A DNA stretch of 64,000 bases from positions 182,965-246,964 of the forward strand of contig CAJINV010000019.1 in the NCBI GenBank assembly GCA_905178155.1, written 5' to 3'. Shown piece after piece: positions 6,101-62,999 of this stretch. The notes beneath the pieces are model-generated. The model ran no database searches. It was not told the origin of the DNA and saw only the letters and a list, made by a program, of their open reading frames with translations. Position numbers and translations under genes: made by a program. How positions within the stretch are numbered: the stretch's first letter is position 1; each line of letters starts with the position of its first letter. The DNA is from Amoebophrya sp. A120 (Eukaryota > Protista > Dinoflagellata).

Positions 6101-9100
6101 TCATGCGGAATAGGCAACACCTAGAAGCTCAGAAACTTGTCATGCTGAGCCAGCACTTGTGGCCTCATCATGAGACGCCACCCAGCATCACAAGTTTCCA
6201 GACCCAGACATTTTTACATTTGATAGGTAGCAGACATCTTGTACTGATCACCTGCTTCGGCACCACGGATTGGCATCAAACGCAAAAATGTCTGGGTCTG
6301 GAAGAATGCAAATTTGTAATGCTCGTCTGGCATGACTCTTAAATCTGTCATGCACATTACCAAAGACCCCCACTTTTCTGTCATGCAGAAACGTAGTTTG
6401 TCATGCAGAATAGGCAACACCTAGAAGCTCAGAAACTTGTCATGCTGCGCCAGCACTTGTGGCCTCTTCATGATACGCCACCCAGCATCACAAGTTTCCA
6501 GACCCAGACATTTTTACAATTCATAATTGGACGAAGGAGCGGATCCGCGCGACGGTGGATAACGCGGTCAGTGGGGAACCTAACAGAATCACCAAAGAGG
6601 GTAAAAGCTCCGGCACGTGCTTTTCCAACAGAGAAATGGTCCCCCCGCTAGAAGTATTAAATGTAAAAATGTCTGGGTCTGGAAACTTGTGATGCTGGGC
6701 GGCGTCTCATGATGAGGCCACAAATGGTGGCTCAGCATGACAAGTTTCTGAGCTTCTAGTCGTGTTGCCTATTCTGCATGACAAACTGCGTTTCTGCATC
6801 ACAGAAAAAAAGAGCTCCTGGGTGCCGTGCATGACAGATTTAAGAATCATGCCAGACAAGCATGACAAACATCAATTCTTCCAGACCCAGACATTTTTAC
6901 AGTTGATAAGAAGTTGTCTGGGACTTTTGTGGGATGAAACTGAAGGAAGAAAACATATCCTGTGCAAAAGTATCGTACTCGTAGTAATTGCAGTTATGCA
7001 TTACAAACCTCTTTCTCATAGGCAAATCCGCATTACAAATTTAATTTGTAACGCTGGGCCAATTTGTATTTCAATTTATACTAGTACGATACTTTTGCAT
7101 TTCATAAAACAAGTCGAGCAGCAACTCCGCCTCCTGAATCGTGTAGCGCATCCTTTGTCTCAGTTGCAGCTGCTCCAATAACTTCATCTCATTCTGCTCT
7201 TCTTTTGAAAGCGCGCCTTTATTCTTCAACATGGTCGTCCCAGGTCCTGCCGCTGCCGCCTTCGCGGGTGCCGCTTTGGCTTTCGCTTTCGACTTTGGGG
7301 CTGCGGCAGATTTATTTCCTCCTGTCGCACCAGCCTTTGCGGTCGTCTTCGGAGCCGCTGCTGCAACTGAAACTACAGCCGGAGCTGCGTCGAGATCCGC
7401 TGATTTGATTTTCGCCTGTGTATGGACTGCAAAAGTATCGTACTCGTATAAATGCGTGACAAATTTCCTCAGCATGAGAAATAAAATTTGTAATGCAGAT
7501 TTGCATTGGGAACAAGATTTGTAACGCATGACTTGCATTTATACGAGTACGATACTTTTGCACAGGATACTGTGCAAGCCCAAGCGAATCTTCGGCGGAA
7601 TTATACTCGGAGTGAAACACCTCAGATTCGTTATTGAGAGGAAAAATCCCCCCTCCCCATATTGAAAAGGTATGTTTCCAAAAATTTGTGTTGCGGATTT
7701 GAGGTCAAAAATCACATCTGTCTTGCAAGAAGACAAGGGCAGAAGCTTCCGCCCCATTATGGAAGCGATTTGTCATGCTGTCTGGCCTAAAGGGGGGCCG
7801 TTTCTCATGCTGAACTACTAGACCCATACGCCCCTACCTAGTCTGGGGATCTGGCCGCAGTGCCTCTGTGCAATACAAAGCTGATTTGTGGCCACAAATC
7901 AGCATCACAAATTTCCGTTTTGATATGGGGAGAGGGGATTTTTCATTTTGATATTCGTCCTGGAAAAAGATCGCAATCGCGTCGGATTTGCTATCGAGGT
8001 TGATTCTGTCGCTGACTTGCTTCATCTTTAACTTCACCTGAGTCATCAAAGACTCCAAATGGTTTCTCGCCGACGGCTTGTACAGCGACGTGATCGCCCG
8101 GACCGCGCCGATTCTGAGCGGATTTTGCTGGAGAAAATTCATCATCTCAGAAGAGCTCCAATCCAGTTCTTCAGACGCGAGCGCGAGCGCCTGTAACCGC
8201 GGGAAGCAACTGTCAAAAAACACATCCGGGCTTTTGATGTTCGATTGGTTCAGTTTCTCTTCCACCAATTTCGTCACCAGCTGCCTCCCACCGATCAAAT
8301 GCAAAAATGTCTGGGTCTGGAAAATTTCTAGACCTGTCATGCATATTTTCCATGAGCCGTGATGTCTGTGATGCATGCCGTAGCATCACAGATTTTCAGA
8401 GCGCTTTGCGATACCTCTACCGCATGAGAAATGCCGTCTCCGCGTAGCACAAACTGGAGCCCTCTTGCTGGTCATGCAGTACAAATTTTTTCAGAATCCA
8501 GAGACAGCATTACATGTTTAGAATGTTCCAGACCCAGACATATTTACATTTGATACCACCGTTCCTCGGGCAAATCGCGGGGTGGAAAGCCAGTGCGAGG
8601 AGACACGCAGTCACATCCGGGAATTCTGCGGTGAAAGGGAGGCAGGCGGACAAAAGGTCTAAAACAATCGCGCGGAGAACAATGTCGGTTTGCGGGATGG
8701 AATTATTTCCCTCCTCGGGAGAAGATATCGAGCTAAAACTTCCTGCTCCGGTCGAAAGACTTGCATTTTTTCCATCCCCGCTTGACGCGGCCGTAGTACT
8801 ACTAGAAGTCGAACCAATCGAACTGGTGGGGAAAAGCGCGAAGTCCTTTCTTCCCAAAACTCTTTTGAACCCATACGACTCGTTCAGAATCGTCGTCCCG
8901 CGCAATTTCCCGTTCTCGAAGTGTTTCTGCCCGCCGAGAACTTGGGAATTTTTCTCCGAGGAAGTCTGCAACATGTGGTGAAATATTTGCACCAAACTGG
9001 TGGTGAAGTGATGGAAAAGCAAATCCAAGTCCGGCTTGCACGCGGGACTGATGGTTTTATCCTTCTCCGAAACCGCTGCGGACTTGACGAGTTTTTCTAA

Positions 9101-17248: not shown

Positions 17249-20200
17249 TCACTCCGTCTTCGCCCGTTTGGCGTCCGGTGGTCCTCCGTCGTTGAAACCG
17301 CCGGTGGCTATCCTGAGTAAAAACGTACCCACACCAGAGTTGTAATGCAGATTTGCACAGACAGGAAGACTTGTAATGCGCATCCGCATGAGAGCCATTT
17401 CCAGTCGTGTTTTGGAATTTGTGATGCTGTGAACAGGATGAGCAGATGGATCTGTGATGCGGCTGCACTTGCTAGTCTGCACTACACTGCAGAGTGCAAC
17501 TTGTCATGCGTGACTCACAAAACTCCTAGGTTTGTGTTGCAAAATCCCCATCCTGACTCTGGTGTGGGTACGTTTTTACTCAGGATAGCGGCGCCCATTT
17601 GTTTATCAAACGCCGTTATGAAATACAAAAGCATCGCACTAGTATAAACCGCATGACAAATTTCCTCAGCATGAGAAATAACATTTGTAATGCGGATTTA
17701 ACTTGACAAAGAAATTTGCAATGCATGACTGCGATTACTACGAGTACGATACTTTTGCAGTTCATAGCCTTGATCGCGTCCATGACGAAGTTTTTCCCTT
17801 TGCCCTGGTCTACCGCCGCGTTTATTATCTCCCCCTTCTTGCCCCCGATCTTCCCCGCCAGTTGCCGCAGCTGGGCTTTCTCCGCTTCGGCCGGCCCGGA
17901 CGGGGTGTTGTTCGTGTTCGTACTCTGGATATGGGTATCCTGTGCAAAAGTAGCATCTACTTTAATATCGCATTTTTCGCAGGCGTAGTACCCTGACAGT
18001 GCAGTTTATTTTACATGAAAGTAAAGACAAACCTCGCTTCTGCACAAAATCCGCATTAATTACAGTTTTTTCATATCTTTTCCTCGTCCACCTCTTCGGA
18101 ATTGTGATTGCAAAGCAATGCCTGCTAGAGCGATATTATTTCTAAATACTTTTGCAAAAATGCATAGATGGACATGATGTCTGCTCCCTCTGCCTTCACT
18201 TTCTCCATTAGATCCTTCACTGCCTCCTTGTCGTTGAGGTCACGAAGTCGCGCGATTTCAAATTTCAACGCCTCCGGCTGCTGAATCAGTTCCCGTACCC
18301 TCTCCTTGCTCAGAAAGTTCCGGTCCGTCTCCATCAGCTGCAGCTGCACCGGAGCATTTGATGGTCCACCGCCGCCGCCCATTGGGTTGCTGGACATTGA
18401 TTTCCCCCCGCCGAGAAAGCCGCCCTTCATGTTCCCGAAATCGGGTCCGCCTTCCGGCCCCTATCAAATGTAAAAGTGTCTGGGTCTGGAAGAGTCATGC
18501 TGTTTCTGCATGACACAGAAGGTCTGGCATGGAAGCTCTAGCATCACAGGTTTCGAGAAGCTTCCGCAATGCCGAATCCGCATGACAAATCCCCCACATT
18601 GGTGACAGAAAGTGAGCAGCTTTTGCTGCCTATGTATCAGAGATTTTTGTGTGTTCTGAAATGCGCATCACAAGTTACATCCTTCCAGACCCAGACAATT
18701 TTACATTTGATAGCCCCATGCCTTTTCCTAGTCCTTGTTTGCTCTTCTGGCCGATGGCTTGTATGATGTTTTGCTGCTCGTCGAAACTTGTGCAGTGAAA
18801 AAGTAGTACCGCACGACTGCTTGCAAAAGAGATTTTAATATACGAAAACTGTTCTCAAAAACAAAAATCGACTGTTGTGTCATGCAGATTCAGCTTAGAA
18901 TTAGAATGAAGCAGTTCTGTTTGCTCATGCAGATCATCAACTGCAGTTCCTATACAGTAGTGCGAAGATTATACTTTTTCAATGCGTAAATCCCTTCTGC
19001 AGCAACTTGTCCACGCCCTCGGGACCGCCCTTCGAGAGCAGGAACTCGATCACGTAGGGAGGTAGATTCCCCGCTTCGGGGTGTAAGCCGGCGAGGGCTG
19101 GATTGGTGGGTCCTTTACTAATGCTGCCCGGTCCACCCTTCATGCCGCCGCCGCCCCAGGAACTGCTTTCCTTGCCGGAGTTACTGTGCTTGTCGAAGGA
19201 CTTGTTGTGCCACTTGTCAAACGGGCCGCCGCCTTTCAGGTTGTAGTAGTTATCGCCCTTGGGATTACTACTTCCACCCCAGCCGTCCTTCCCGCCCGAA
19301 CTGTTCCAATCGTGGTCCTTTCCGCCTTTGCCCCAAGCATCCGGCCCTTTCGGCCAGTGCCTCGGGGACTTCCCCCACTTGCCCTTTGGTGCGCCCCAGC
19401 CCTTGCTGGGATCCATTTCGGGGGAAAGCCGCGGGGTCGGCATGCCCTTCGGCTGCTGCATGCCCTGGGGCATGATTGACGGGCCCTTCATGCTGTTCGG
19501 CGACGGGCCTGCTCCGCCGGGTAGCGGTGGCATCATCGGTCCTCCGGGGCCCCCCTTGTTTCCCGCCATGGGGACGACGGCGTTGGGGTTCAGTTTCAGC
19601 ATGATCTCGTGCAGCTTCGCTTTGCCGGATTCGGTTAATGACACAAACATCTGGTCGTCGGTTGCCGCCTCGATTTGAAAAAAATCCTTGTTTTCCTTCC
19701 CCAGGGCTTGGGTGAGCAGCTTCACAAACTTGGGTAGGTCGATGGAGAACGCGGGGAGGCTCTGCAGATAGTCCTTGTAAAAGGAAGCGCACTGTTGAAA
19801 ATGATTGTTGTTTTTCGCTTTTATTTCTTGTGTCATGTACTATGTCTTGCAACACAAACCAATTTTGCCATGCACTGTCTTGCATTCCACACATAAGAAG
19901 ATAGATGAAGAACATAAACATCTATCAAATCTATACCGGTTTATCCACGCACTCCTTCTTTACTAACTCGTGAAAGGCGATGAAGAGTGGATTCCTTTCG
20001 CCCGCGCACAGCTTTATCTTCCCTGGTGAGGCGTCCCATATGTGCTTCTGGCCTTCCAGCACCCGTCCCTTCTCGCCGTCGAAACACCGGAGAAAATCGA
20101 CGCACAACTGGGCCTTCAGTTCGTATACCTTGCAGATCTGCTGCAGGGCGAGCTTCCACAGTGCAAATGTGCGATTGCGCCTGAGGGAGGTTTTATTTTC

Positions 20201-22009
20201 TCATCATGATTTTATTTTTGATGGAGATGATGAACTTTGGTCAAAATTCTTGCAGTTTTCTTTTTCAGTAGGTACGCAAGATCACATCACTATCAACACG
20301 GTGCAACCGCCCAAGTAAAAAATTTTACTTCTAGTATAGATACGTATGCCAAGAGTCAAGTCATCTTACCTTCCCCGCAGCCACGCCTCGACTATATTTC
20401 CGCCCTGCTTTTTCACCACCTTTTGCTGTTCCGCAGTTAAATCCTCCGGCATTTTGAAATAATGGTCCGTTAACCGCTGGCACCACGTTTGCAAGATGGG
20501 CACCTTCTTCAACGCCGGGAGCGGTTTGGGGCCGGACCTCCCTAGGCTGATGGAGCAACCCAGGGCAAAGAAGAAACGCGTTTTTCTCTGGTAGTCGTCA
20601 TCATCCTTGGCGAACGCGAGAAGTGCGGACCCCGAGATCTCCTTCATCAACTCTTGGAGGCGCTTTTGCTGTTTTTTAGAAATGTTGATTTTCTCCTGGT
20701 CTTGAAATTGCGTAATATTGGTAAATGGGATTTTTTCCAACACTTTTCTTTTCTTATCGAGATTCTTGCTTGTCGATAAAATTTTTGTTCGCATGGTGGT
20801 ACGATCTATCAAAGGTGCGATTTTTTGAGTAGCGGACACTACAACATCCTTTTTTCACAATACCCCCAAAAGGAAACTCAAAAATTGTACCATGGAATTG
20901 GCTTCTTTTTCACTGCCGAAATTGTTCGTCTCGACGTCGTTTAGCCAGGAAACTAACCTATCCGTTACCAACTTTACCGCCTCGGGCAAGACGATTTTCT
21001 TCATCATCGGAAAACACTCGATGATAACCTGATTGAATTTTCAACTGCAAGAAATGCGTTTTCTCATTTTTGTACGTGTTTCTTATTTTCATTTGACAAA
21101 AATATGCGAATAACGACGGAACTCGCGGTTCTCATGCGAAAAAACGCATCTGCGCGTGAATGCTGCAAAAGCTGCAAGTTTCGCCGCAGTGAAAGTGCAT
21201 CATACCGTTGTGATTCAGATTCTGAAAATTTGAAAACCGACGGTATGATGTATTTTCAAATAAAACAAACAGCCAACACGTCAATCACGAGCTAATGGTG
21301 AGTTTATAAAAAATTCATGCAAGAATACAAACCTCAATCACGGCCTGAATGCGTTTTCTTCATTTTCGCGAGAGTACTTAAATGCAGTTCTATATGGAGT
21401 CACGATTTTGTAGAATCAATGAAATTTTTTGGCGATAAAGGACAAAAATTAAAAGTTTTCATCAAGAACCATCACCTAGTAGGTACTTACAATTGCAAGT
21501 TGACAAATATCAATCTAGTACCTGTTGGTCCTCCGGCTCTGCGGACTGAAATTTTGGGATGACGAGCCGAATGCACTCAATTCGGTGTCTATCGCAAGAA
21601 AAAGCTGCTTCACTGTAAACTTGTGATGCAGGAGAGAGACAATGAGATGCAGTTGCACAGAGGGGTCGTTTACCTTGCTATTTACAAAACTACATGTTGC
21701 AAGACAATCGGGGATGTTTAGCCGTGTTTTTATCTTTCCCGAGGAAGGACGACCGGCGCATGGCAATTTTTTTCATCATGTTGTAGAAAAGCAGACATTT
21801 GTGAAATACTTACAAGTACAACACAGAGAAGCACTTTATATTCTTCTTGGATACTTCCGCACTTCTTCGGGTAGATCACTCAGTGCGGAGGCGAAATCTT
21901 CTTCATCAATCGCCTTGGTCGTCATTGCGGTAATGTCCTCCCCGCTCAAGGCTTGCTTGTCCTGCGCTCCCGCGCTGGGGGACTTCGTAGCCGCGTCCGC
22001 GCCGGTCAT
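17249..22009 (-). CDS. Multi-exon hypothetical protein with helical N-terminal part and a Gly/Pro/Lys (KGG/WGK) low-complexity region, possibly RNA-associated
   Basis: Exons join in frame at the junctions checked: MTGADAATK..EEVRK|HRIECIRLVIPKF..DQQ|VIIECFPMMKK.. through ..GGFNDGGPPDAKRAKTE* (stop 17249). Six introner-type and several GT-AG introns. Confidence 0.7.
17309..17587. mobile_element. Introner family D
   Basis: Perfect 32-bp TIR; TSD GTGGC/GCGGC; near copy at 59583. Confidence 0.93.
17617..17766. mobile_element. Introner family B
   Basis: TSD GCCGT/GCCTT. Confidence 0.88.
17936..18166. mobile_element. Introner family B, decayed
   Basis: TIR remnants; TSD imperfect and offset by one base. 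Confidence 0.7.
18462..18712. mobile_element. Introner family A
   Basis: TSD GCCCC; near copy at 60818. Confidence 0.93.
18789..18988. mobile_element. Decayed B-like introner
   Basis: Ends TGTGCAGTGAAAAAGTA / TACTTTTTCAATGCGTA; flanks AAACT/AATCC; frame restored on removal. Confidence 0.65.
21590..21853. mobile_element. Introner family E, decayed, now forming GT-AG intron 21589-21854
   Basis: Similar to 54135-54343; TSD not retained. Confidence 0.75.
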
Positions 22010-24848: not shown

Positions 24849-27800
24849 TCACATGATGACACAGCTGCAGGGCTGCGCATTTCCTTTTCGTTTCCCTCCA
24901 CCCCCTGCTGTGGCATCATCGTAGTTGTCGAATTGGTCCCGCTCCCAATTTTCGCCTGGCTGGGGCTCCCAGCCGTAGCCCTCACTTGATTCGGATTCCC
25001 CTTTTCTCTTGCCATACGCAGACCAGTGCTCGCGCTCGTAGCTCATGTCCTTTCTTCTAGACGGAGACTTGATAAAGTCCTTCCGGTATCAACTGCAAAT
25101 ATGTCTGGGTCTGGAAAGTTGTGATGCAGGTCACTGAATAATAACCACACTGTAATGCGCCCCCAAGCATGACGACTTCTGTGTATGTGTTGCGTATTCC
25201 GCATGAGAAACTGCGTGTTTGCATGACAGGCAAGAGGAGCTCCTGGTTGCCACGCAGTACAGATACCAGAGTCATGCCAGACTAGCATGACAAATCTCGC
25301 AATGTCCCAGACCCAGACATTTTTGCAATCCATATCCGGTGCTCGTACGTCGCCATCTTCAACGGGGAGCCGTGGCAGTGCCCGCACACCGTGGCGGCGC
25401 CGAAGGACCAATCGAAGTCTTCCCACTGCAGGAAGAACACGCCGTCGTCCGACTTCACAAAGCTGTTGTGAGGGTTTTTTTTTGGTGAGATAGTAAAATC
25501 CTTTCAGAATCATAGTGTTGTTCTTATAGTTGGAACAAGAGAAACAACACGAACTGCGATTCATCTACTCTGAAGGACGACGAGGCAGGATCCAGAAAGA
25601 CCGATTTTTTTGTTTTGTTTCTCGTCATGAATCTCTTATTTGCAGCATGCGTGGATTCTTTTTCTTGTTTTGTTTCCACTTCCCCACGATAATGCTAATG
25701 GCTCTTTGACATGGATAGTAGCAGCGCACAAAGGTTTTTCTTGTGTTCGTAGACCGACCGCTTGCTTGCTCTTTTTGGTCCTAGCGATAAATCTGACTTC
25801 TGATCGGTTGGTTCCGAAGGACTGAACTGCAGGGCCAGCAGATAGCAGAGGTAATAGAGGTAGCGATAGCCATATTAGGTCGTTCACAAAACGCGCAACT
25901 TCCTATGTATTCAATAGCTCTATCTTACAGTACGGGGCAACAGTAGTGCGTCGGGTTCATTTGGAAGCGAGGATGAGATGGTGCTAAGAAAGGCTTCTTA
26001 TTTCGGGCCGAGAGAGAGTACAAATTCGCCGCTTCATCTTCAGTTGGAGGTGGTGGTCAATGGGCTCAAAGGCGGAAAAGAATGGCACCAAGGGAAATGG
26101 GACAAGTATTAACGGGATGAAGTTAATATCATCTGCGGAGATGAGAATCCATCGCAGAACATGCGGGATAACGCCGTGGACAGGACCTTTCATCCTCCTC
26201 CGTGGCGCCACATCTACTTGGCCTCACTGTGGTCGGCGGGGCGATGATCATGCCGTTGATGGTACTTTCCGGCTTTTGAAGTAAAAGGAATTATTGCGGA
26301 AACAGGAGAGGACGCGAGGGTGACAAGAATAACTCAAGGGATGTCGGCTGGAAATAGTACGAAGGAAGCAACAACGCGAGCACGAAGAAGTGGCGGCCGA
26401 TTCAGACTTGAGTTCGATATATATCACATCTACATCATGCATAGAGGGACACCTCCACGCGTTTTCATTTCTTTTCCCATGATATATGATCACGATTTTC
26501 GTGCTGCTGAAAACTCTCATCTCGGTCAGAATATTGATGTTAGCGGCTCTTTCAATTATACAGACATGCTTTTGATTTGCTCCTTGTCATTAGCGATTGA
26601 AGATCTATCACCCTGAAGATCGGCTTTTGCGTATAAAATTTCCATAGGCAACCGTGATAGAGGTATCCGGAAAAAAAAGCATCCTTCCATTCCTTGCAGT
26701 TTTTTGTAGAATTACACCGAACTTCGAAGGTCAAGCGCTATGCTAATCTTGGGCTTTCTTGATGTAGTACAAGTGTGACAGCAGGATGAGGACCTACAGC
26801 TAGACACCAATCATGGCATGTAAATGCATACCAGCAGCTACAAAAGCTCGTCGCTTAAGTTCAGGATCAGCTGTTAGCGCGTCAGAAGATTCTGCTGGTG
26901 GTAGGGAGCTGCAAGAATTCTGCTCCATCTTAGCCCGGCTCCAGCAAATCTGCGCCCAGTCTCCGCCGGGCAGCACCACCCGTGCTTGCAGCATGACCGA
27001 CGCAGCGCGGCCAAGCGGATGAAAAGCAGGTCAGAATTATCTTCAAGACAAACCAGAAGCGAGGGAAGGTGGGAATAAAGGCTCTGGCAGAAATAATCCA
27101 CCGACGTAGTGGAGTGCTGGCCCCAGACGGAAGCAGAAGCGGAAGGGCTGCTGAGGGTGCGTACTGGGACTCCGGGACTGGACTACAACTCGTCTGGGTC
27201 TGCAAACAATCAGCGAAGTTGTAGCGCATCTAATGCGTCTTTCTTTGATCGATCTTCGAGTTGTGATATTGATCAGGAAGCTATAGTTTTTTCTTCGTTA
27301 ATTTACAGCTGGTGTTGAGCTTATCCGAGCGCTATAATGTAGCACATAGCTAAATAAGCACTGTAAGCATGATAAATTTTCTAGCTGCGCCAGGTTTCAT
27401 TGGTGCTGACGTTTCTCCTGCCACAACAATGGCACACGAAGAGCGAGTTCCTACTGTAAGTTGAAGGTCTTATATTGCATACTAGTTGTGTCATGCGAAC
27501 TGACGATGTCATTAGTACTAGTGGGCACGGCCGTATTAGAAGATAGGAGCAAGGTTGCATTTATTTCGTCTCAGTTTCCTCGAGCACCCTAAATCGGCGT
27601 GGCCGTGGGGATATTATCTTCTATGCCGTGTTGCAATACAAATTCCGAGTCCCCAATTTAGCACTATCTTTTTTTCGTTCATGCAACACGCCATTGATTA
27701 ATTAAAACTTCCCCTATGTACGTTACTTTCAGCTGTACTTGTGGACTAGCATCTTCATCCTGCCACCCTATTAATTTACACCTGTTACAACTTCTCTTTC

Positions 27801-30800
27801 CGAAGCCCCGCATTGTAAGTAGTGCCGCTGGCTGCAACATATTACGACCTCTACAAGAACCAGAGAGCTTCAGCCCTGCAGTTGCAGTTCATTCCATTTC
27901 CAGCATTGATTTCCAAAAACATAAGTCAAGCGCTACACTTTCCTTTCTCCTGATGTAATCTTCACGAGTACGTAGTGCAACGGTTGGTTTTATTCTAGAA
28001 TTCGCCTGCGTAGCGCTCCACCCAGCGGCCAGCGAATAGAATCTTCACGAAGAAGAAGAACGGCATCATGCCAGCTTCTAAGTAGAGACCACATTCATCA
28101 CTAAAGCAAACAAATGACAATAAAGAGTAGAGAAACCAAATCAAAATAAACAATAAGTACTTGAGCGCCTTGGCAATCTCGGGGTAGTAGTCCCAGACCG
28201 CGCTCTGATCGGCCCAGAGTCCCGTCCATTCCCCGTGCCCCCAGGGATTTCGGATTTTCACGAACTTCGCGCGGGTACCGCCCTTCAGCCAGTACTGCCC
28301 CGCCGGGCACTTTTCGTACATTTTCGCGGTGTCCGCGTGTCCGGCCATCTTCCGGATCATGGAGCCCTGCACCTGGTTTGGCTGTTTGAAGCTGATGGTG
28401 TCCTATGCATTGCAAAAATGTCTGGGTCTGGAAGAATGCAACTTGTCATGCTAAATCTGAAACATGCAAAAATCTGTGTTGCATGATTACCAATAAAGCT
28501 GTTCACTTTTGAGAAGGCCGAGAGACAGTTTCTCATGCGGAAAAGGCATGGTAAAGATCTCACAAAATCTGTGACGCTAGGGCATGCATCACAGACCTCA
28601 CACGTCATGCAAAACGTGCATGACAAACCTGGCAATCTTCCAGACCCAGACATTTTTGCATTTGATATGTCCCCGTTGCGCACGCTCAGCACCTCGTCCG
28701 GAAGAAAATTCTTCCCGCTCGTGGGCGTTTCGTAACACCTATCCACAGTAAATTTCCCGTACACGTACAAAGAAATGCGGTCTCTGCATGACAAAACTGG
28801 GCTCCGATCCTAGTCTAGCATGACAAGTGTTACACGGGAAATTGGTGAAATTTGTGATGCATTTTGTACATGTACAGGAAATTTGTATTTTTGCATAACA
28901 CCACTTCAGCTTCCCGTGGTTGCCCTCCAGCTTGAAGTCGTAACTCTTCATGGTCTTCTGCATCACCGTGCCCCGCCACTTCGTGGGGGTCTCCTCCGAG
29001 TAGTGCCGGAACCGAATCGGGCACCCGGTCTCGTTGACGAGGTGCAGGACCTTTTCGTTTTCCCGCTCCTGCGCGGAGATGGGGGTTTTCGTATGCATTG
29101 CAAATGTGTCTGGGTCGGGAAGGATGCAAAGTTTGCCATGCTTGTCTGGCATGACTGAAGAGTTTGTCATGCGTGTGCCAGAAGAGACCCTTTGACTTGT
29201 CATGCAAAAACGCAACGTGTCATGTGGAGAGCGCTACACTGAGCCGCGCAACTATTTCTCATGTTGCTTGGCTGATGTGCATTACAGAGCATTCACGATT
29301 CACAACTCGGCATTACAAGTTTCCAGACATCCAGGGATATTTGCAATGCATATTTTGCAAAGTCCTGCAAAAACTGCACGTAGCCGTCCCGGCCCCCGCG
29401 GGGCATCTCCATATCCCGCACGTCTAAGATGGAAAACACGTATCCTGAGTAAAAACGTCCCCACCCCAGAGTCACGTTGGTAAATCTGCAACACAAATCT
29501 CCAAGGTTTGGAAATTGTGCATGACAAGTTCTTTCCATCTGCAGTGTAGTGCTGTTTAGCAAGGGGAGCGCATGATAAATTCATTTTCTCATCGTGTTTA
29601 CTTACAGCATTACAGATTCCAAAACACGACTGGAAAGAACGCGTCTCATGGAGATGCGCATTACAAATGTAGTTCCTGTAGTCGCAAATCTGCATGACAA
29701 CTCTAGGGTGGGACGTTTTTACTCAAGATAACACGTGCCCGGGGATCAGCCCGTCCTTTCCCTCGCAGCCCGAGGTGGTCATCAGGAAATTTCGGCCGCG
29801 GAAGTCCAGCATCTTTTCCACCGTCATCTGCGGCTCCAGGATCTGGTTGTTGGGGTTGCTGTGCCGTTTCGAAGTTTCCAGCTCGTAAATCTCGGAGCCG
29901 GCCGTGAGGGCCTCCATCGCCTTGGTGGACCCGATGGGCGTGATGATGTTTTGCATCCCGCCCCGGAGGTTTTGGTAGCACCCCGCCCACTTCGCGAACG
30001 CCTTCTCGATCAGGACCGGCCAGAGCTCGCCCTGGGTGGCGGAGGAAACAAACTTCGGATTGGCGATGTTGCCCCGGTCGACCGGAATGCGGTCGTCGAG
30101 CAGCAGCCACCGGATCTGTATCCTGTGCAAAAGTATCGCACTCGTAGTAATTGCAATCATGCATTACAAATTTTTTTCTGAAGCTAAATCCGCATTACAA
30201 ATGGTATTTCTCATGCTCACGAAATTTGTAATGCATTTATACGATTACGAGTACGATACTTTGGCAATGCATAATCTGCCCCTCGACGACAATGCGAAAC
30301 GTGAACACCCCGAACTCCGGCACGTGCGTGATGGCCCGCTTCACGAACTCCGGGTCTTCGCGGTACGCGCACGCGGCCAGGATGGACGTGAGCCAGCAAT
30401 CGCCCACGTTGTGCTGTCGGATGTCCGTCTCGTGGACGCCGTCCGGCGCAATCAAAAACTCCGGGTGCGATATGTCCGGGTTGTTGGCGATCCGGGACTT
30501 CAGGATCCAGGGTCTCCGCCAGTCGGTGGCGTCGCAAACCTTCCCGTACCCGTTGTCTCCGTCCGGGTCGCATTCCGAGCAAATCACTTTCCGGTCGAAC
30601 GGGCCGTCGAAATTCAGATCCACAAAAAGCGTCGCGTCCTCGTGGATCAACTCTTTCACTTCGCTCGTGCGCAACTGCAGGTCCTTCCCCACGGAATCAA
30701 TCTGCTTCGCCGTTGCCTGGGTTTGCTCCTGCCGCACCTCGTTTTTACTCACCTCGCTCATCGCTTTAAAGTGCTGTTTCGCGATCACCGCGGTGATATA

Positions 30801-33800
30801 GCGCGCCTCCTCGACCGCAATATCGGAGTTGAAAGAATCCCGTTGGTGCTCACCCTCGAAGAAAGGACCACGGCGGAGGTGCTCCTGTGGGGCGGATGAG
30901 AAATTTGAATTTTTTATTTTCGATGTAGTAAACATGAAGTTGACCACCCCACGTCGATTCATGCTAGTTGTAATAGGCCGCCGTCATTTGTTCCCATTGT
31001 AGGGACCGCTGGTGCACGTCAAACACATAAACTATCATGCGGGGACTACTTCGAATGCTTTTGCTTGCATGTTTGTCGTGGTACCTATAGACACTTTTTT
31101 TCATACACTATGTCGACAGTGCTTAAGTTGTACATGGTACGTAGTGAAGCTGAAGATATTGAAGACTCATCAAACAATACAAGGTTTATCAAAGACAGTA
31201 AGTACAACTAAATACCCTCCTCCTCTCGTCCCGCGCGCGCTTGTCGATAGCATTCTGTACTTTCTCGTCCCGGTCTCCGTCGTCCGAGGAAGGGCTACTG
31301 TGAGAGGAAGTTGTCTCTACTTCACTGGCCATGTCCGCTTGCTGTTGTTCGCCCTCAAACTGCATCTGGACTTGTTCCGGCGCCGCTTCCTCCCCCTCCT
31401 GGGAATGTCTCAAGTGCACCGATATCAAATGCAAAAATGTCTGGGTCTGGAATGTTGCCGGGTTTGTCATGCATATTGTGCACCTAGACCAAACTACATG
31501 CATATTTTGCATGACCCAGGACGTCTGTAATGCATGGCCTAGCGTCACAGATTTTCAGAGGGCTTCCTGATGCCTATTCCGCATGACAAATACCCTCCCC
31601 GCGTAGCACAAACTAGACCCCTCTTGCTGATCATGCAATACAGATTTTTTTAGTGTCCAAAGTTAGCATCACAAGCTTCAACCTTGCAGACCCAGACATT
31701 TTTGTACTTGATAACCGACCTTCGCATCCCCGCTTTGTGGTTGGAGATCCGCGTCTATCCTGTGCAAAAGTATCGTACTCGTAGTAACCGCAGTCATGCA
31801 TTACAAATCTCCATCCTAAGGCAAAACAGCATGACAAATACCATTTGTCATGCTGAGCCAATTTGTAATGCGGTTACTACTAGTGCGATACTTTTGCAAG
31901 GCATAGCGTCCGCACCGAGGAGCCCTCCATGTTGGTCACCTTCTTCACCGCTTTTAGTGGGACCTCCTCGGCTATCAAATGCAAAAATGTCTGGGTCTGG
32001 AAGATTGGAAGATTTGTCATGCACATCTGACATGAGCCATAAAGGCTGTGATGTATGCCCTAGCATCAAAGATGTTCTGAGTGCTTCTTGATGCATATCC
32101 TGCATGAGAAATCAATGCCCTCTCTCCACGTCGCAAAAACTGGAGTCCTATTGCCTGTCATGCAACACACATTTTTTTTTATTTTTTAGAATCCAACAAT
32201 AGCATTACAAGTTGCATCCTTCCAGACCCAGACATTTTTACATTTGATATCGGCGTGCCCGTGCTTGTGGACCGCGGACACGCGTTTGTAGACCTCGACC
32301 TGCGTGCCCCGGCGGTCCTTCTCCAAGTCGGAACCCGGAAAATTCATGCTGTTGTCGTACTCCACGTGCGAACCCAGAATGGAGTCCGCTTCCTCGCTAG
32401 TTGGCAAAGAGCCGTATGCATTGCAAAAATGTCTGGGTCTAGAAACTTGTGATGCAAATCTACGAACAATGAATCTTCAATTGTGGGCGCGCTGCAATAT
32501 GCAGCCCAGCATGACAAGTTTTTCAACTGCTGTGTGTTTCGTTTTTCGCATGACAAACTGCGTTTTTGCATGACAGGCAAGAGGCCCTTTGCCTGCTCAT
32601 GCATCACAGATTTAAGAGTCATGCCCGACAAGCATGCCAAACCTTGCATCCTTCCAGACCCAGACATATTTGCATTTGATAAGCCATACTGGCTGACGAT
32701 CTCCTCCGGAATGACCCCCTTCAACAGGTTCCGGACGGCTTTCTGGATCTCGATGATCCGCGGCAGCGGGTCCTTGGTGTAGAAAATTGGGCCGGTGTGC
32801 TTAATATGCAATACAAATATCCCTGGACGTGGACGTCTCAGCGGAAGGATGAACCTGTATTGCGAGTCTCGCATTCCTGAAAAATCTGTATTGCATCATC
32901 TTCCTGAGTAACAAAAGTTCTCGCAGTCTCTCTTGTGGTCATGTTGCAAAAAGGCAGCTTCTCATGCAGACTGTGTATGAGCGGAGAAAGCGTAGTTCTG
33001 CAAATTTGTCATGGAGTATCCTGCATTTGGAAGTAGAGCTCTCATCAACATCATACACAGCTTAGCATCACAAATTTCCAGACCCAGGTTTCGATATTTG
33101 CAATGCATAATTCGAGTAGCCGTTCAGGTCCGTAATGGGGGCTTCCATCACGATCCGGGTTAAGGGGCACACGCGGGCTATGGAAGTGTAAGAATCGAAA
33201 TTGACAAAGTCGAAAAATTTGTGATGCACAAGATCGATACCAGTCGCGGCCTCAGGAGTTTTCAAGTGGCGCATGACAAATTTTGAGAGCAACAAAATCC
33301 GTCTGTCATGCTGTTTGGGTAAAGAAGACTGCTCCTGTCATGCTACTCTGGCAACACATTGCATACCCCTAAACAGGCCTGCAATCGGTCTCACTTGCCT
33401 GCTCCCCAATACAGGCCTACGGTGCCCTACATTTTATGCATCGCAAATTTTTCGACTTTGTCGATTTCGATCCTGACACATCCATACGGGTTTCGCGCTG
33501 GAGCCGCTCCAGGAGCGACAACCGGCGGAAGCAGTCCGTTGCCTATCCTGTGCAAAAGTATCGTACTCGTAGTAATCGCAGTCATGCATCACAAATCTCC
33601 ATCCCAAGGCAAAACAGCATGACAAATTTCGTTTGTCATCCTGAGCCAAGAATTTGTAATGCGATTACTACTAGTACGATACTTTTGCAGTGCATATTGC
33701 CGAGTACCAGCCCATTTCCATCGGGAGCTTCCCGCGCCGGCGGTTGCCGTCCAGCATGTAAAATTCGTCGAAAAAGACGTAGGACTGCGGGTTTCCCTCC

Positions 33801-50300: not shown

Positions 50301-51432
50301 TAACATCTGAGGAAGCCATATGGTCGAGAGCCACTTTCTGCCCGTTGTCCGCCGTAAACTGGGTCCCTTTCGTCAGCCGTTTCCGCTTGTCCTTGATCAT
50401 CTGTGCGAGCTCCAGGATCGTCCCGGTCACTTCCACGTTGTCCATTTTCAGACTTGCGGTTTCGGCCGCCGTGTCGCGCTGCGTGGCCTCGGTGTTCACA
50501 ATCGCCGCGCATCTTGGCGACGCCGCATTTTCCAGAGTCACGAGACCACTGTGGCTGAACAGGATCTTATGGAGCTCTCAAATGTTACATTCTCAGCTGT
50601 TACATGAATTTGTAATGCAAGAATGGGATGAAAAGTGGAAGGGGGGAAGTTGCGCCTATTGCATTACAGGTTTGGCGCAGATTCTCAGCCTCTTGGGCTC
50701 TTCGACAATTTGTAATGCGAAGCAGCTTGATCGTTTCGATTTCTGATTGCCATTTTGCATGACAAACAAGGCCCACCCGAGCGTGGGGACAGGGTCCCCA
50801 CGCTGGGGCCTTGTGCCCTTCCCTAGTGGCGCTAGTGGGGGAAGGGTGTTCGGCATCGGGGCGGACAGCGTCCGCCCCTCGCCTCACACCAGGCGCACGC
50901 ATGGTGGCTCAGTGCGCGAAGCACTAGTGGGGGAAGGGTGTTCGGCATCGGGGCGGACAGCGTCCGCCCCTCGCCTCACACCAGGCGCGCGCATAGTGGC
51001 TTAGTGCGCGAAGCATTAGTGGGCGGGGGAAGGGTCGTGTTCGGCATCGGGGCGGACAGCGTCCGCCCCTCGCCTCACATCAGGGGCGAGCATAGTAGCT
51101 TAGCGCGCGAAACGCTAGAAGTGGGGGAAGGCAGGGCGTTCACCCGTCGCGGGCACCTGTCAAGGTCACCTGTCAAGGTCACCTGTCGAGGTCACCTGTC
51201 GAGGTCACCTGTCGAGGTCACCTGTCGAGGCCACCTGTCGAGGTCGCCTGTCAAGGTCACCTGTCAAGGTCACCTGTCGCCGGGGGTATGCCGTACCAGA
51301 GCCCGGAAGTCAAGCAATGTAAATATTAATCATGTAACAATTGAGAATGTACCGTTTGAGAACGCCATAGATCTTTGTGGCATCCTGGGAAAGGACTCGT
51401 CCTCTACTGGTGGTGCGCGAAGGGCGAGGCAT
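41340..51432 (-). CDS. Calpain-like cysteine protease, paralog 2
   Basis: QHNVGDCWF, GELWPVFVEKAFAK, GLIPGHVFSLLDV, KIRNPWGHGEW, DDGVFFQQWEDF; colinear with paralog 1. 19 introners plus GT-AG intron 44461-44703. Candidate ATG 51432, TAA at 41340. Confidence 0.87.
41470..41691. mobile_element. Introner, decayed singleton family
   Basis: Ends TATCACAC../..GTGTGATA; TSD TCGCG/TCGCA; frame restored. Confidence 0.75.
41752..42840. mobile_element. Introner family A carrying a nested insertion
   Basis: TSD GCCTT; 1089 bp. Confidence 0.9.
41837..42652. mobile_element. Nested 816-bp insertion with 11-bp TSD (possibly SINE/non-LTR-like)
   Basis: ATTGCATGACC at 41826-41836 and 42653-42663; no TIRs; no long ORF. 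Confidence 0.75.
42919..43230. mobile_element. Introner family H
   Basis: TSD CCGTC. Confidence 0.93.
43297..43548. mobile_element. Introner family A (A1)
   Basis: TSD GAGAA. Confidence 0.95.
43989..44340. mobile_element. Highly decayed introner-like intron
   Basis: TAT../..CATA ends; interrupts LEGxNGKLKWC, which is contiguous in paralog 1. Confidence 0.55.
44938..45256. mobile_element. Introner family A, decayed
   Basis: One clear A arm; TSD lost, but removal of element plus 5 nt restores frame. Confidence 0.75.
45391..45572. mobile_element. Introner family B, partly decayed
   Basis: TSD AATGA. Confidence 0.88.
45698..46094. mobile_element. Introner family J, decayed
   Basis: Ends TATAACCTGCTCA../..TGAGCAGGTGATA; TSD CATCT/CATTT. 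Confidence 0.78.
46116..46264. mobile_element. Introner family B
   Basis: TSD TTTTC. Confidence 0.92.
46307..46627. mobile_element. Introner family C
   Basis: TSD GGTAC. Confidence 0.93.
46825..47131. mobile_element. Introner family K (TIR TAY-N7-AAAAATGCCWCCAMC)
   Basis: TSD GAAAG. Confidence 0.85.
47194..47458. mobile_element. Introner family A
   Basis: TSD ACGCG. Confidence 0.93.
47511..47775. mobile_element. Introner family A
   Basis: TSD GGGTC. Confidence 0.93.
48247..48509. mobile_element. Introner family A
   Basis: TSD CGTGG. Confidence 0.95.
48876..49133. mobile_element. Introner family A (A1)
   Basis: TSD CAGCA. Confidence 0.95.
49434..49768. mobile_element. Introner family C
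   Basis: TSD AACAG. Confidence 0.92.
49795..50029. mobile_element. Introner family I (TIR TATGGMGTTCTCAAMTGTTACATTCTCAACTGTTACATG)
   Basis: TSD CGGTC. Confidence 0.92.
50065..50320. mobile_element. Introner family J (TIR TAT..CTCAG.TGTTACAATCTCAAA)
   Basis: TSD TGGTC. Confidence 0.92.
50832..51131. repeat. ~92-bp tandem repeat, 3 copies plus a partial, each with a GGGGCGGAC-AGC-GTCCGCCCC hairpin
   Basis: Unit starts at 50832, 50924, 51016. Confidence 0.9.
51136..51278. repeat. 13-bp tandem array (RAGGTCACCTGTC) x ~11
   Basis: Directly visible; first two units are degenerate. Confidence 0.95.
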
Positions 51433-52509: not shown

Positions 52510-55500
52510 CTACTCCGCCGGGTCATCCTTGCTCATATCGGCTGCGCTGCTCATGTCTATATTGGTGAACTTCTCCTCTTCGACACCCTCGTCTTGCTCC
52601 GCCGCGCGGATCAGGCTCGAGAGCCCCGTGTTGGTCGCCTGCTCCAGGGAATCCAGCACGTTCGCGTGGGTCTTTTTGCTGCCCATCTTCTGGCACACGA
52701 AGAAAAGCATGGAGGCGGAGAGTATTATCACTGCTGCCCAGAGGAAACCTGGGTCGATGCGAGAAAGTGAAAGATCATGCACTTTTTTCCTCAAAACCAA
52801 AAACTACAGGCTGCTCTGTCAAGAGACAACACACGAGTGAGTCTGTTTGGAAGAATAAGAACGATAGACTACAAGTACCAAATTCTCTCGATTACAGTGC
52901 ACGACCATGACTATCAAAAGCACTATGTAAAGCCCACCTTTCAGGATCTTTTGCGATTTGTTCACATCGGCGAGGGGTCTTCTCACGAACAAGCTCGCGT
53001 TTCCGTAGCTAAGGCGGTTTTCCATGAGCGCGCCAGTTTCGCCAGCAAAGAAGGTGCAGTGGTGGGAACCGTACATGACAAATCCCGTACAGCCGATCTG
53101 TACGCACTTTTCTTCGCACCGTGTTTGCGACGATGCAGCGTTGATGCGCCCGATCTCCCCGTCCTCTATCATCGTCGACGGGTATTGTACGAATTCTTTC
53201 GTCATAAAAGCCGCACTATCCAGTGCAAATATGTCTGGGTCTGGAAGATGATTACGAAGTTTGTCATGCTTGTCTTCCATGACTTTGGGCTCTGTGTTGC
53301 GTATTCCGCAAGAGAAACAGCGTTTTTGCATGACAGAGTACATGTCATCGTTTTTGCATGTTGACACTGACAGAGTGCATGTCATACTTGCGGGTGCATT
53401 ACAGAGTGCTATATTATATAACTGACTTGCATCACAACCTTTCAGACCCAGACATATTTGCGATGCATACGCATCAAACCGCGTTGGATTGGTGATTACC
53501 CGGTCGAGCTCCTCAATCGCGGTGTGGACCTGATTAGATTTGTGACGTCAAAACCGAATGTGTTCAAGCGAGCCCAGCATTACAAATCAGGCAAACAAAC
53601 TACAGGCAGCAAGTATAGTAAGGAATATGATCATCTTGGAGGTAAAACTACGATACGGATTATAATCAGCATGGTATGTAAGTACCCACGTATGCCCTAT
53701 CGGCCGGCTCATGTCCGCCTGTGTCTTCGGCAAATAGCGGAATCGCCTTTTTTCGTTGTACAACACCAGTTCATTGGGCGACACCGAAAAGAATTCAAAG
53801 GCGTACTGGGTTCCGTAAAAATTTCGTTGATCCAACAGCAGCGACGCGGGGGACCCTTCCGGTTGCGGGATCTGGTGTGGTAGCGATGATCATCGTGGTA
53901 ATGGTATTGTTCGAAATAGGATAAACAGATGCGCTTGGCTGGTCAGAAACAGAATGTTAGTGTTACACTTACAGCTTATGCGCCTGCATGAAGATAAAAA
54001 TCTTCGCATGATCATGTGTATTACTGGTACTGCATGAGAACCGAGAAGTATCAAAAGGGTATTATATCAAGTTCCATACCTTAGAGCACGAACTGGAGTC
54101 CCAGCCGAGGCCAAAGCTGAGGATCGCGACAAAGTATCGCAAGAAAAAACTCTTTCACTGTAAACTTGTCATGCAGAAAATGTATCTGAGAAGTATTTGT
54201 CTTGCTACACATGCAAGACAATGGATTTTTAGCTGTGTTTTCCCTTTGGAGTCTCGCATGGCAAATGTTCTCTGTGATGTAGAGCAAACTTGTGATGCAA
54301 AACTTGCAAAATCCTTACAGTGAAACACTTTTTTCGTCCGATACAAAGTGTATCTCGGGAAAGATTTTCGCCAATTGCGCAAAATGCCGGTACTGGGTTA
54401 TGACCTGCTCAAACGTTACAATCTCAAACGTTACAATAGAATTTGTATTTGGATTTGGTGTTGCATGTTGACGAGCATGACAGACTCGGACAGCATTCCA
54501 CTTTCTGCAATAAGAATTTCGCCAGATTGTAGTGCAGTTTGGGACGACTCCGGAGCTTGTCATGCGCAATCCTATGAGAGTTGGCTACATGATGCACCTC
54601 TTGCATCACAGATTTCGACATTCTATTGTAACGCTTGAGATTGAAACACCTGAGCAGGTGATATGGGTCCGGCTAAAGTCTGAGTCTGCGTCGAGGAACA
54701 ACAGCGCGAGCGGGTATCAAGAAGAAAAATCCGGCCTCCCCATATCAAAAGAAAATTTCTGATGCTGGATTTGCGTACACAAATGAGGTCTGTCTTGCTG
54801 CCAGGAATTGCGGGCAGATTCTTAGGCTGTTTAGGTGCGCAACGGTCTAGCTGTTTAGCATGGGAAACGCCTGCCCCGTAGGCCAAGCAGCATGACAAAT
54901 CGCATCCATAATGCGGCGCATCCCTCAGCGCTTGCCTTCTTGCAAGACAAAAATAATTTGAGACCGAAAATCTGCATCACAAATTTTGCGACGGATGCCT
55001 TTTCAATATGGGGAGGGGGGATTTTTCCTCACAATAGCGGGCCTTTCGCGTTCAGGGTCCGCGATACGCCGACGCAGGATTATGGAAGTGTCAGAACCGA
55101 AATTGACAAAGTCGAAAAATTTGTGATGCACAAAACCGCCGCCAGTTAGAGCCTCAGTTTCCAAGTGGCGCATGAGAAATTTCGGGAGCACCCAAATCCA
55201 GTCTGTCATGCTATTTGGGCAAAGAAGACTGCTCCTGTCATGCTACTCTGGCAGCATATTGTATAGCCCTACACAGGCTTGCCATCGGTCTCATTTGCCT
55301 GCTCCCCAATACAGGCCTTGCGGGCCCTACATTTTATGCATCGCAAATTTTTCGACTTTGTCGATTTCGATCCTGACACTCCCATAAGGATTTCAGCTGA
55401 AATAGCCCGTCATTTGGGAGCGCCAGGGGCGGAAACGAAGTTGGGTAGGCGGTGACGGGGGACACCAGTGAAGATGATGATGATGTTATCGTCGTTATAG

Positions 55501-56948: not shown

Positions 56949-59900
56949 CTAGTACTTCTGCGATTCCTCCACCGCTCCAGCTTTCGCCGCGCCCGCGTCT
57001 TCCAAAACCACCGAAGCCTTACTCAGTTGCATGGAGGTTGCTTCTTTGGAACTCACCCGGATATCCATGATTTTGACCGCCTCTTCTGGTTCGACGCCGT
57101 TCTCGCACGCGCCCCCGTTGAAGACGGACAGCATTACATCCTGTGTAAAATAAACTACGCGGCCCAAACCGACCTCAGAGCTGTCGTGCAAAGTACTATG
57201 TGCCTTCCTGAATGGTTTCTCATGCGCACCCACATTTTGAAATTAGGCTTTTTCTAACGCTACCTGAGAGCTTGTCATGCCAGAATCAGGATGAGGATGA
57301 GCTGGTCGATTAATCACATGAGGCTGCACTAGGTACACAAGATGGCAGTACAAACCCAAACACGTCAACATGCGCAACAGCCAAAATAAACTTGTTGATT
57401 TGTGTCGCTGCAACATGAAGATGTCCGTCTTGACAGCTCTAGTAGAGTGGGGACTCGTTTATCATTTTACACAGGATATAAGACCGGCAGAATGATCAAG
57501 GAATTGATGAACCCGAAAGGATATCAAACACAAACAAATATCAATATGTCATCTCGAAGGTCTGGAAAATAAGTGCACCTACCTGCTTTGCCATGCATAG
57601 ATATGTTACATGACCAATGACGCTCCTCGTCTGTGATATGTGTCCTAGCATCACAAATGAAGATCTTCTGAGTGCTTTTTGATTTTGATGCCTATTCCGC
57701 AACGTGAGAAAGACTCAGACTCAGACATAGATACTTATTTGCAGTTGATAACAAAACGACCAGCACCAACACCTTGAAAAAGACGGAAAACACGTAGGAT
57801 GCGGAAAACGCCAGCACAATCACCGCGAGCAGTGTGGACAAGAGCGCTATGCATTGCAAATATCCCTGGAAGATGTCTGGAAACTCGTGATGCAAGGAAG
57901 GGGATTATAGCAAGCACACTGTCACGCGCTGCCAAGCATGACAAGCTTTTATTTCGTGGCTCTGCTTCTGAGTTGCGTTGTCCGCATGAGAAACCGCGTT
58001 TTTGCAACATGACAGGCATAGGCGAGAGGAGCTCTCATTTGCGGCCACGCAACACAGATCCCAGAGTCATGCCAGACTAGCATGACAAACCTCGCGATCT
58101 CCTAGACATCCAGGGATATTTGCATTTGATAAGCGCGTTCAGCACCGAGATTCCGATCCGGTTCACCGCGTCAACTATGCAGTGCAAAAGTATCGCGCTG
58201 GCATTGCAATCATGCATTAGCATTACAAATCTTTTCCCCAAGGTAAATCAGCATTGCAGAATTTATTTCTCATGCTGAGAAAATTTGTAATGCATTTATA
58301 CGAGTACGATACTTTCACAGTTCATAGCAATGGCTTTCTTGTTCCCCGTGCTCTCCACACTGTGGCGGAACATGTGCCCGATGTGCGCCGAGTAATCGAC
58401 AGACAAACCGATGCATCAAATGCAAATATGTCTGGGTCTGGAAGAGTGCCAGACTTGTCATGCAGGTTTTCCATGACCCATGAGGTCTGGTATGTAGGAC
58501 ATAGCATGACAGATTTTGTGAGCGTTCTATCATGCCTATTCTGCATGAGAGACTGCCTCTCGATTAGGTCAAAAGTGAACAGCTTTTGGTAATCATGCAA
58601 CACAGATTTTTCCATGATTCAGATTTAGCATGACAAGTTGGTTCCAGACCCAGACACTTTTGCATTTGATACGATGCAGATCACCGTGTAGATCGAGATC
58701 ACGCCGTTGATCGGCTTATGGAAGCGTCAGAAGTGAAATCGATAAAGTTGAAATAATTTCTCATGCATAATTTGCGAGGCATGAAGTGCCTCTCTTGCAG
58801 GGATGGCAAGAGAAGCCGACTGTAGACCTGTTTGAGGTCTGCGAAAGAGCTGCTATAAAGTAGCATGACAAAAGACGCCTTCTGTGCCTAAAAAGCATGA
58901 CGCGCTGGATTTAGACGGTGCCGAAATTTGTCATGCGCCGCTTAGGCTTAGAACATGGGTTGCCAACTGGTTGTATCGATTTTATGCATTACAAGTTATT
59001 TCTTCAACTTTGTCAATTTCAATCCTGACACTCCCATACGGCTCGCCTAACCAGTAGTAAAACCCGACCACGTTCAAAATGGTGGACAACACGGAAATAT
59101 CCTGTGCAAAACTATCGCACTCGTAGTAATTGCAGTCATGCATTACAAATTTTTTTCCTAAGTTAAATCCGCATGACAAACTTTATTTCATCTCATGCTG
59201 AGGAAATTTGTAATGCATTTCTAAGAGTACGATACTTTTGCAATGCATAGGAAATGATCACCGGGATGTTTGCGCGGAAGGAGGGAATCATGCAGAGGAT
59301 AATAGCGAGAATCACGCCGGAACAGAGCAACGCGTTGCGCACAAACTCCGGGCCCGTGTAGCCGACCTCCTCCCACCAGAGGAATTCGAAGCCAAAGGGA
59401 AAGGAATTCCCACCCGCGCAGAGGTTTGGCACTTCGGACCGGAGCGCCTCCATCGTGTCCCATCTGTCCGTGCCCTCGTTGATGTACTGCTTGCGCAAGA
59501 TTCCGTTGGAAACGCGGACGGCCTGGAAGCCGCTGCTGGGCACCGCGGCGTTTACCCAGGTGAAGTCTTCCGCGGTGCCGGATATCCTGAGGAAAAACGT
59601 ACCCACACCAGAGTTGTAATGCAGATTTGCAAAGACAGGAAGACTTGTAATGCGCATCTGCATGAGTGCCATTTCTATATCGTGTTTTGGAATTTGTGAT
59701 GCTGTGGACAGGATGAGGAGGTGGATTTGTTATGCGGCTTCCCTTGCTAAACTGCACTACAATACAGCCTGCAACTTGTCATGCGTGACTCACAAAACTC
59801 CTAGGTTTGTGTTGCAAAATCCCCATCCTGACTCTGGTGTGGGTACGTTTTTACTCAGGATACCAGAAGCCCCGTAGGTACTCGTTTCCCATATGAATTG

Positions 59901-62370: not shown

Positions 62371-62499
62371 TATCCAACAAAAAAAGGCTGTAGGTGTCAC
62401 TTTGTGATGCGCAACATGCGTCATGATTGCCAATGCCACGCTCGTGGTCATGCATTCTGTTCTAGGGTCCAGCATACAAGCTATTTTTCATTTCAAGTA
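62371..62499. mobile_element. Left arm of an introner-like element, partner end not in the window
   Basis: TATCCAACAAAAAAAGG start at the exon edge, followed by a TTGTGATGC motif; right limit approximate. Confidence 0.6.
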
Positions 62500-62660
62500 C
62501 AAGTGCTAGCCTCTTGACGCGGGCGCCCCGGACGCCCGCTGGGCTAGTAGATTTAAAGATAATTCTAAAGATGGGAATGTGTTCAGAAGGTCTGGCTTGG
62601 AGTCGAATAGAATGTGGCGAGAAGGTTGAAAAGCATAGCGCTGCCTGCCGCGAGGAAGAT

Positions 62661-62950: not shown

Positions 62951-62999
62951 CAGGCAGACAGGCCCGGGCGACCTAATAACTTTAATCGGACTCTAAAAA

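Follow-up and report, generated by a model that had tools for sequence, protein, structure and literature searches.

A nine-base motif repeated inside the introners of Amoebophrya sp. A120 is a probable inherited binding site on double-stranded DNA

Nearly all introners of Amoebophrya sp. A120 that start with TAT and finish with ATA carry a 9-mer, GCATNACAR, repeated two to six times in their interiors. We have characterized this motif in a 64,000-nucleotide stretch of contig CAJINV010000019.1 (positions 182,965 to 246,964; referred to here as the window) and in a second assembly of 145 loci (L121-L265, ~580 kb of distinct sequence) recovered by a TIR scan of metagenome contigs. The 9-mer is genuine and prominent in an introner system that is already known, and it has apparently not been described before. 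We think it probable that it is an inherited double-stranded binding site for one shared transposase or helper, and that splicing relies on the element ends. The finding bears on both the spread and the splicing of tens of thousands of non-canonical introns in Amoebophrya. The original prediction was made without knowing of an earlier description, and we found none, although an earlier mention is possible: an internal motif does not appear in the portions available of the text and supplement text of PMC7789003 and PMC12130899, or in the passages available of PMC9860276, PMC11282704, and PMC12005148. The matches listed in a literature search with the motif string were unrelated, as judged by title.

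There are 223 strict matches to GCATNACAR in the window (122 on the plus strand and 101 on the minus strand), compared with 4.98 expected and no more than 12 in any shuffle, and the enrichment over background on which the prediction depended is thus clear. The fifth base is G in 110 matches, C in 68, T in 44, and A in just one – that is, G, C or T in 222/223 – and the true word is GCAT[CGT]ACAR; a family-weighted matrix widens it to approximately GCAWBRSARA plus a weak run of T. All but six of the matches (217/223) lie inside 68 curated TAT...ATA elements that together occupy 18,351 bp of the window. Five of the six others (25, 59, 1700, 1719, and 62402) belong to cut-off or old elements and the last, at 53577, is in an apparent canonical intron. 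Outside the elements in the window the 9-mer is at or below chance, with one clear copy in ~44 kb. Element profiles cover 20% of the second assembly, and this fraction contains 1151 of its 1258 strict copies. This assembly contains the same subfamilies, with copies up to 98% identical to those in the window, and is therefore a larger sample rather than an independent lineage. Two TIR scans of viral contigs gave no matches, and a motif-pair scan of viral contigs gave 120 loci, 98 of which have just two seeded copies and are taken as chance or tandem matches.

The family A introner at 6655..6908 (254 bp) is located in a coding exon of a minus-strand GCN1-like gene, and is flanked by 5-bp target site duplications at 6650..6654 and 6909..6913 (both given on the plus strand). 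Its left TIR (6655..6684, plus strand) contains the TAT start, an A-tract at positions 11-15 that is found across families, and a family-specific inner arm at positions 16-30; the right TIR (6879..6908) is on the minus strand. Six copies of the 9-mer had been reported here and all are at the positions and on the strands given. The first is on the minus strand at 6687..6695, pointing outward with its centre 37 bp from the left end, and the other five are on the plus strand at 6735..6743, 6776..6784, 6796..6804, 6829..6837, and 6860..6868; the last three start 20, 33, and 31 bp past the copies that precede them, and the final copy is centred 45 bp from the right end. Removal of this element together with ten others, each with 5 nt, leaves a 2109-aa stop-free frame with Pfam HEAT/GCN1 matches, and for the 6655 element itself this frame restoration is the only evidence of removal. 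The GCN1-like gene also contains a short and very degenerate TAT...ATA segment (1642-1765) with two copies of the 9-mer.

The same architecture is seen throughout. The elements start with TAT, finish with ATA, and have an A-tract at 11-15 (weaker in families H, I, and J) followed by an inner arm that is particular to each family. All families share a target duplication of 5 bp without a fixed sequence. The duplicated bases match at four or five of the five positions in 57/59 curated elements and exactly in 49, and exact 6-bp duplications are found in 0/59. The elements have all of the features expected of MITEs: they are short and non-coding, have TIRs and target duplications, and are present in many copies. 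The summed depth of DNA contigs over the A arm is ~8e5 relative to ~30 in unique sequence, which is a rough comparison and not a copy number. The TIRs had been described as unrelated, and this is so for the inner arm but not for the outer ends, which are common across families; identity among the 12 family consensuses is 0.76 at positions 1-3 and 11-15, and 0.36 at positions 16-30. The outer TIR was also considered as a degenerate copy of the 9-mer, and this was rejected because only subsets of the A, B, and E ends score (6-26%) and none do in the other nine families.

A search blind to the motif – using inverted arms and an exact 5-bp duplication, in the window and the second assembly – gave 363 matches, 342 of them starting with TAT, and beyond the window 287 of the 297 TAT matches contain a strict copy of the 9-mer. 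The matches form 12 multi-copy families and five singletons. No member of the 12 families is without a matrix site, and this includes the smallest family, whose 109 bp comprise two TIR arms and two sites 32 bp apart. The proposal that the 9-mer is present in every family therefore holds for 12/12 multi-copy families, but one of the five singletons lacks any site and a few old copies have lost it. Ten elements besides 6655 had been named, and all ten carry the 9-mer, with two to five strict copies each: those of family B (33544..33696; 153 bp and three strict sites), C (54715..55036), D (17309..17587), E (54135..54343), F (28740..28897; with its sites laid out as in B), G (57848..58131), H (33179..33486), I (49795..50029), J (54399..54663), and K (46825..47131). 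They were said to contain it in both orientations, which is correct for six of the ten but not for C, D, E, and G, where the strict copies are all on one strand; family D remains one-directional even with the relaxed matrix. Additional GCATG/CATGC half-sites are common in the element interiors across families, as are recurring, closely spaced opposite-strand pairs at 16-17 bp.

The families are probably distant relatives rather than unrelated, as judged by sequence comparison, and the 9-mer is therefore likely inherited. Family G arose from A, families I and J are relatives, and the interiors of C and H align over ~150 nt despite their differing inner arms. Many cross-family pairs are above a null in which the sites stay in position (Z 4-9, probably inflated by motif flanks), and unmasked profiles cross-match between families over up to ~240 nt. 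When the sites are masked, a single cross-family pair is left, in which the H profile matches 3/31 C copies; because masked profiles find almost solely their own family, the 9-mer is the part of the interiors that has survived. The likely history is of a single ancestor that already had the 9-mer, with the 9-mer resisting change since then. A hybrid element at 29092-29352, in which the left arm resembles that of A and the right arm that of G, suggests how new TIR types arise.

The positions of the sites fit the geometry of double-stranded DNA. Measured from the element end, the first outward-pointing site has its centre in one of three narrow ranges (36-37, 44-48, or 56-59 bp) across differing inner arms. 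These distances advance in steps of 10-11 bp and are phased, with R = 0.84 at a period of 10.4 and also at 11, and 0.25 at 16 (19 family-end classes, which share ancestry and are thus not independent trials). In 11 of the 12 multi-copy families there are same-strand pairs separated by 31-33 bp, although the spacing of all pairs is ambiguous between a 16-bp lattice (0.352) and 10.4 bp (0.344), and its signal weakens from p = 0.01 to ~0.05 when pairs at 31-33 bp and at multiples of this distance are set aside; the shared ancestry of the families applies here also. The large subfamilies differ in length by one turn, with 251-252 versus 262 in A, and 311 versus 321-322 in C. The motif is thus at a fixed distance and phase from the ends, as in a subterminal repeat, with the periodicity ambiguous at the level of pairs.

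Changes within the elements suggest that the 9-mer has been held by selection. A profile search gave 497 near-full-length copies, of which 482 were used (those with nearly intact ends and at least two of five duplication matches). Changes shared by at least three copies strike the motif core at 0.23x the interior rate, and private changes in the motif, corrected for saturation, are at 0.37 of the interior rate overall, with a deficit for every base class. It had been asked whether the 9-mer in old copies is conserved or decays, and the outcome is a partial decay: as the target duplication decays, private changes in the motif rise from 0.30 to 0.38 and 0.54 of the interior rate, whereas those in TAT are at 0.33, 0.11, and 0.07, and the TAT/ATA ends do not decay. 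Mismatch in the duplication climbs 1.2-1.3x as fast as that in the motif, which is approximately the expectation for neutral decay. An apparently neutral motif in older copies (a naive singleton ratio of 1.06) was a saturation artefact in variable columns, and is 0.45 when corrected. These patterns favour selection on the motif in donor copies, with selection after insertion holding the ends instead. Nonetheless, the motif in old copies is still below neutral (0.54, CI 0.40-0.78), which could reflect constraint after insertion, an unsampled donor history, or bias in the profile search, which favours motif-keeping copies; the copies sampled represent a small part of the total, and end-finding favours TAT. 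Among elements found by their outer ends alone, 359/362 keep at least one site, with three lacking a site at the threshold used. A second role for the motif, in splicing, would be compatible with this partial decay.

Removal of the elements appears to be at the RNA level. We used run X3, which is taken as RNA (a guessed type; it skips CT..AC-bounded introns), and run X1, which behaves as DNA. Between the pieces of one 4554-nt X3 contig there are 696 and 1088 nt, and these lengths correspond to the loss of 13 elements, each with 5 nt, and of two canonical-bordered CT..AC introns. The 13 elements lie in one gene, within 25082-33696, and represent six types (A, B, D, F, G, and H), including the B, F, and H elements at 33544, 28740, and 33179, and their removal together with the two introns results in a 931-aa calpain-like frame. 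In all 13, removing the element and one 5-bp duplication restores the pre-insertion coding sequence, whatever the duplicated bases. Because X1 contigs continue across the boundary between exon and element without a break and at the depth of a single copy, removal is at the RNA level, at least in its major form; DNA-level excision was considered and is ruled out as the major form, with the caveat that rare forms would drop out of contigs. The TIR stem is predicted to be paired at 0.88-0.98 in folds. In the same region, the RNA contig skips a 2698-nt CT..AC-bounded stretch (25463-28160) that is unusually long for this genome, and low-depth RNA contigs are present inside it. Over 56,900-62,400, runs X3 and X4 at 100% likeness gave neither exon coverage nor junctions.

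The 9-mer shows no preference for the strand of the gene. A codon model called the gene strand for 305 of 461 elements, and these have 418 strict sites in sense and 463 in antisense, with 51 sense-only and 63 antisense-only elements; one-directional family D is split 15 to 17. In the window, 53/53 calls are to the minus strand, in agreement with the ORFs and reflecting a co-oriented gene block. A family D element at 29441..29730 has all of its sites on the plus strand, antisense to its minus-strand gene, so that its transcript has only reverse-complement sites, yet it is removed from the RNA contig; the D element at 17309..17587 is in the opposite orientation with all of its sites sense in the transcript, and its removal is inferred from the frame. 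The absence of strand bias and the removal of the antisense-only element make a single-stranded RNA signal unlikely. In predicted folds, pairing of the 9-mer equals or exceeds that of the remaining interior, with no exposed-loop signature.

The prediction of a shared cis-code read by one factor is supported. Two types of factor had been put forward, and the data fit a common transposition protein that binds DNA but not a single-stranded RNA signal. The favoured reading – an inherited double-stranded site for a shared transposition protein – is to be weighed against four others. An RBFOX-type RNA element is a strand-specific GCAUG in the transcript, and an RBFOX-like splicing factor reading the single-stranded 9-mer in pre-mRNA would account for its near universality in spliced elements and for GCATG being the most frequent core (110/223). 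This analogy, raised with the original prediction, fails on the 418 sense and 463 antisense sites, on splicing of the antisense-only D element, on position 5 being G in only 110/223 and C or T in 112/223, and on the folds; it is already largely refuted and we regard it as highly improbable. Scarcely more credible is that the 9-mer is a functionless leftover of an internal repeat in the ancestral element. The prediction was to fall if the motif was simply shared ancestry, and half of this holds, in that the families are probably related, with aligned C and H interiors, cross-family Z of 4-9, and unmasked cross-matches to ~240 nt. However, only one cross-family pair is detected with sites masked, shared changes are depleted about four-fold, and private changes are deficient across every base class; the 9-mer is not simply ancestry, having persisted as the spacers and inner TIRs diverged.

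Two further readings retain a double-stranded site, although both are unlikely. In one, the array is occupied not by a transposase but by a host chromatin or DNA-binding protein that the elements exploit, with a role in silencing, bending, or the placement of nucleosomes. Helical phasing would suit any DNA-bound scaffold and no transposase was found, but a general host site would not be expected to be at or below chance outside the elements, nor to have its position tied to element ends, and we consider this quite doubtful. In the other, to which we give a small but somewhat greater chance, the protein that occupies the 9-mer on DNA would have the added task of flagging the element for co-transcriptional removal, so that these introns would be DNA-defined: a DNA-binding transposase, helper, or domesticated copy would both mobilise the element and mark chromatin for exact removal of the element plus 5 nt, a combination that we rate equally low. 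This would explain splicing in both orientations, the private motif changes staying at 0.37-0.54 of the interior rate, and retention of at least one site in 359/362 end-found elements, and the report that U1 snRNA is undetected in A120 (PMC7789003, in the part available) is in keeping with it. Against it, the 9-mer is lost in older insertions about as fast as the target duplication whereas TAT is retained, old motif-poor copies still interrupt frames, and selection for mobility alone suffices for the conservation. If it were true that the array also licenses splicing, this would be a new way of defining introns, and marking on the DNA side would provide strand-independent intron definition in a lineage without detected U1 snRNA.

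Under the favoured reading, the shared transposition protein is predicted to be an integrase-type transposase or its helper that mobilises all families, which would derive from one ancestor already bearing the 9-mer. Several protomers may bind the array on one helix face and pair the two element ends, with cutting at the TA ends and a 5-bp stagger on insertion. A copy would continue jumping for as long as its array is intact, and the array would for this reason be conserved despite drift in the spacers and inner arms. Splicing would not require the 9-mer and would instead use the TIR stem together with the TAT/ATA ends, a suggested division of labour with the ends serving splicing and the array serving jumping.

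Candidates for the mobiliser were sought in the window and the second assembly. No autonomous element was seen, as the long TIR-bounded elements in both carry only foreign inserts, and 80 long ORFs (76 of the 134 in the second assembly and four in the window) have no match to a transposase family. The 9-mer would serve as bait in a pull-down, and as a signature by which the autonomous element or the jumping enzyme might be recognized. Farhat 2021 (PMC7789003, in the part available) reports no transposase in A120 and 1954 introner families, and rules out general mobilisation by transposases. The best lead, from its description, is A120 family 38, which has a 5-bp TSD, TA/TA termini, a Ginger label, and Copia/Gypsy-like ORFs (PMC12130899, in the part available). 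As far as the available parts of the earlier accounts go (Farhat 2021, PMC7789003; Gozashti 2025, PMC12130899), A120 introners likewise have TAT followed by seven variable bases and at least three A, are non-canonical, ~150-330 nt long, and in coding exons, and have similar family lengths (109, 149, 209, 235, 252-262, 278, 305, and 321). The border direct repeats are given as 3-5 nt in the part available of PMC7789003, compared to 5 bp here. Unlike the view in that part of Farhat's account, the fixed 5-bp duplication, the one phased motif, and the homology across families suggest a single related group served by one protein, and thus one mobiliser.

Comparisons with other systems, each to the extent of the source available, suggest that the elements may behave as MITEs that depend on an integrase-type transposon. 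MITEs are known to have repeated subterminal motifs to which transposases bind (PMC1636448), and in the non-autonomous Emigrant/Lemi1 system described there (which also cites CACTA, hAT, pogo, and Sleeping Beauty) a short motif is likewise repeated inside the ends in either orientation. The Emigrant motif is part of that family's TIR, whereas here the 9-mer is distinct from the inner TIR, is present in 12 families with differing arms and throughout the interior, and has predicted binding. IS1535/IS607 similarly have helically phased 9-bp motifs, some 20-60 bp inside the end, but these use a bacterial serine transposase and lack TIRs and target duplications, so that the likeness is an analogy only (PMC6188088). 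Among integrase-type DNA transposons, IS3EU/GingerRoot have TA..TA termini as here (PMC10045372, PMC6839031) but mostly 6-bp duplications rather than 5 bp (PMC10045372, PMC6839031, PMC12730594), and Ginger2/TDD have 4-5 bp duplications, as here, but TGT...ACA rather than TAT...ATA termini (PMC2836005); going by these descriptions, the combination of TAT with 5 bp fully fits neither. Non-conventional introns of euglenids also have a TIR stem that joins the ends, non-canonical borders, and TSD-like repeats, but differ in their conserved end bases, and no internal motif array is described in the passages available (PMC11282704).

An old B-type element at 17936..18166 retains TAT/ATA ends without the motif (best matrix score 2.3), and the frame is broken if it is kept; it could use a canonical GT-AG pair. 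The motif-poor element at L149:4816-5015 in the second assembly also breaks the frame if kept, and a canonical route is possible for it. An old E element at 21590-21853 has flanks that give GTAT...ATAG on the gene strand, and may have turned into a canonical GT-AG intron with one added codon, though by length arithmetic the +5 non-canonical and +2 GT-AG junctions both fit. Four swollen introners of 0.8-1.1 kb (41752-42840, 50568-51369, L136:505-1608, and L188:11014-11985) contain foreign, partly tandem-repeated inserts and keep intact ends and duplications. The region at 62371-64000 begins with an E-like left end, followed by GC-rich ~100 bp repeats and many GCTAATT-type repeats to the window edge; it contains no ORF above ~120 aa and is possibly a large nested element. 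Calpain-like genes or domains are present twice in the window, at ~28-34 kb and at 43-50 kb, and their insertion sites differ; at L133:2625-6080 in the second assembly a C5 cytosine DNA methylase domain is split over two ORFs.
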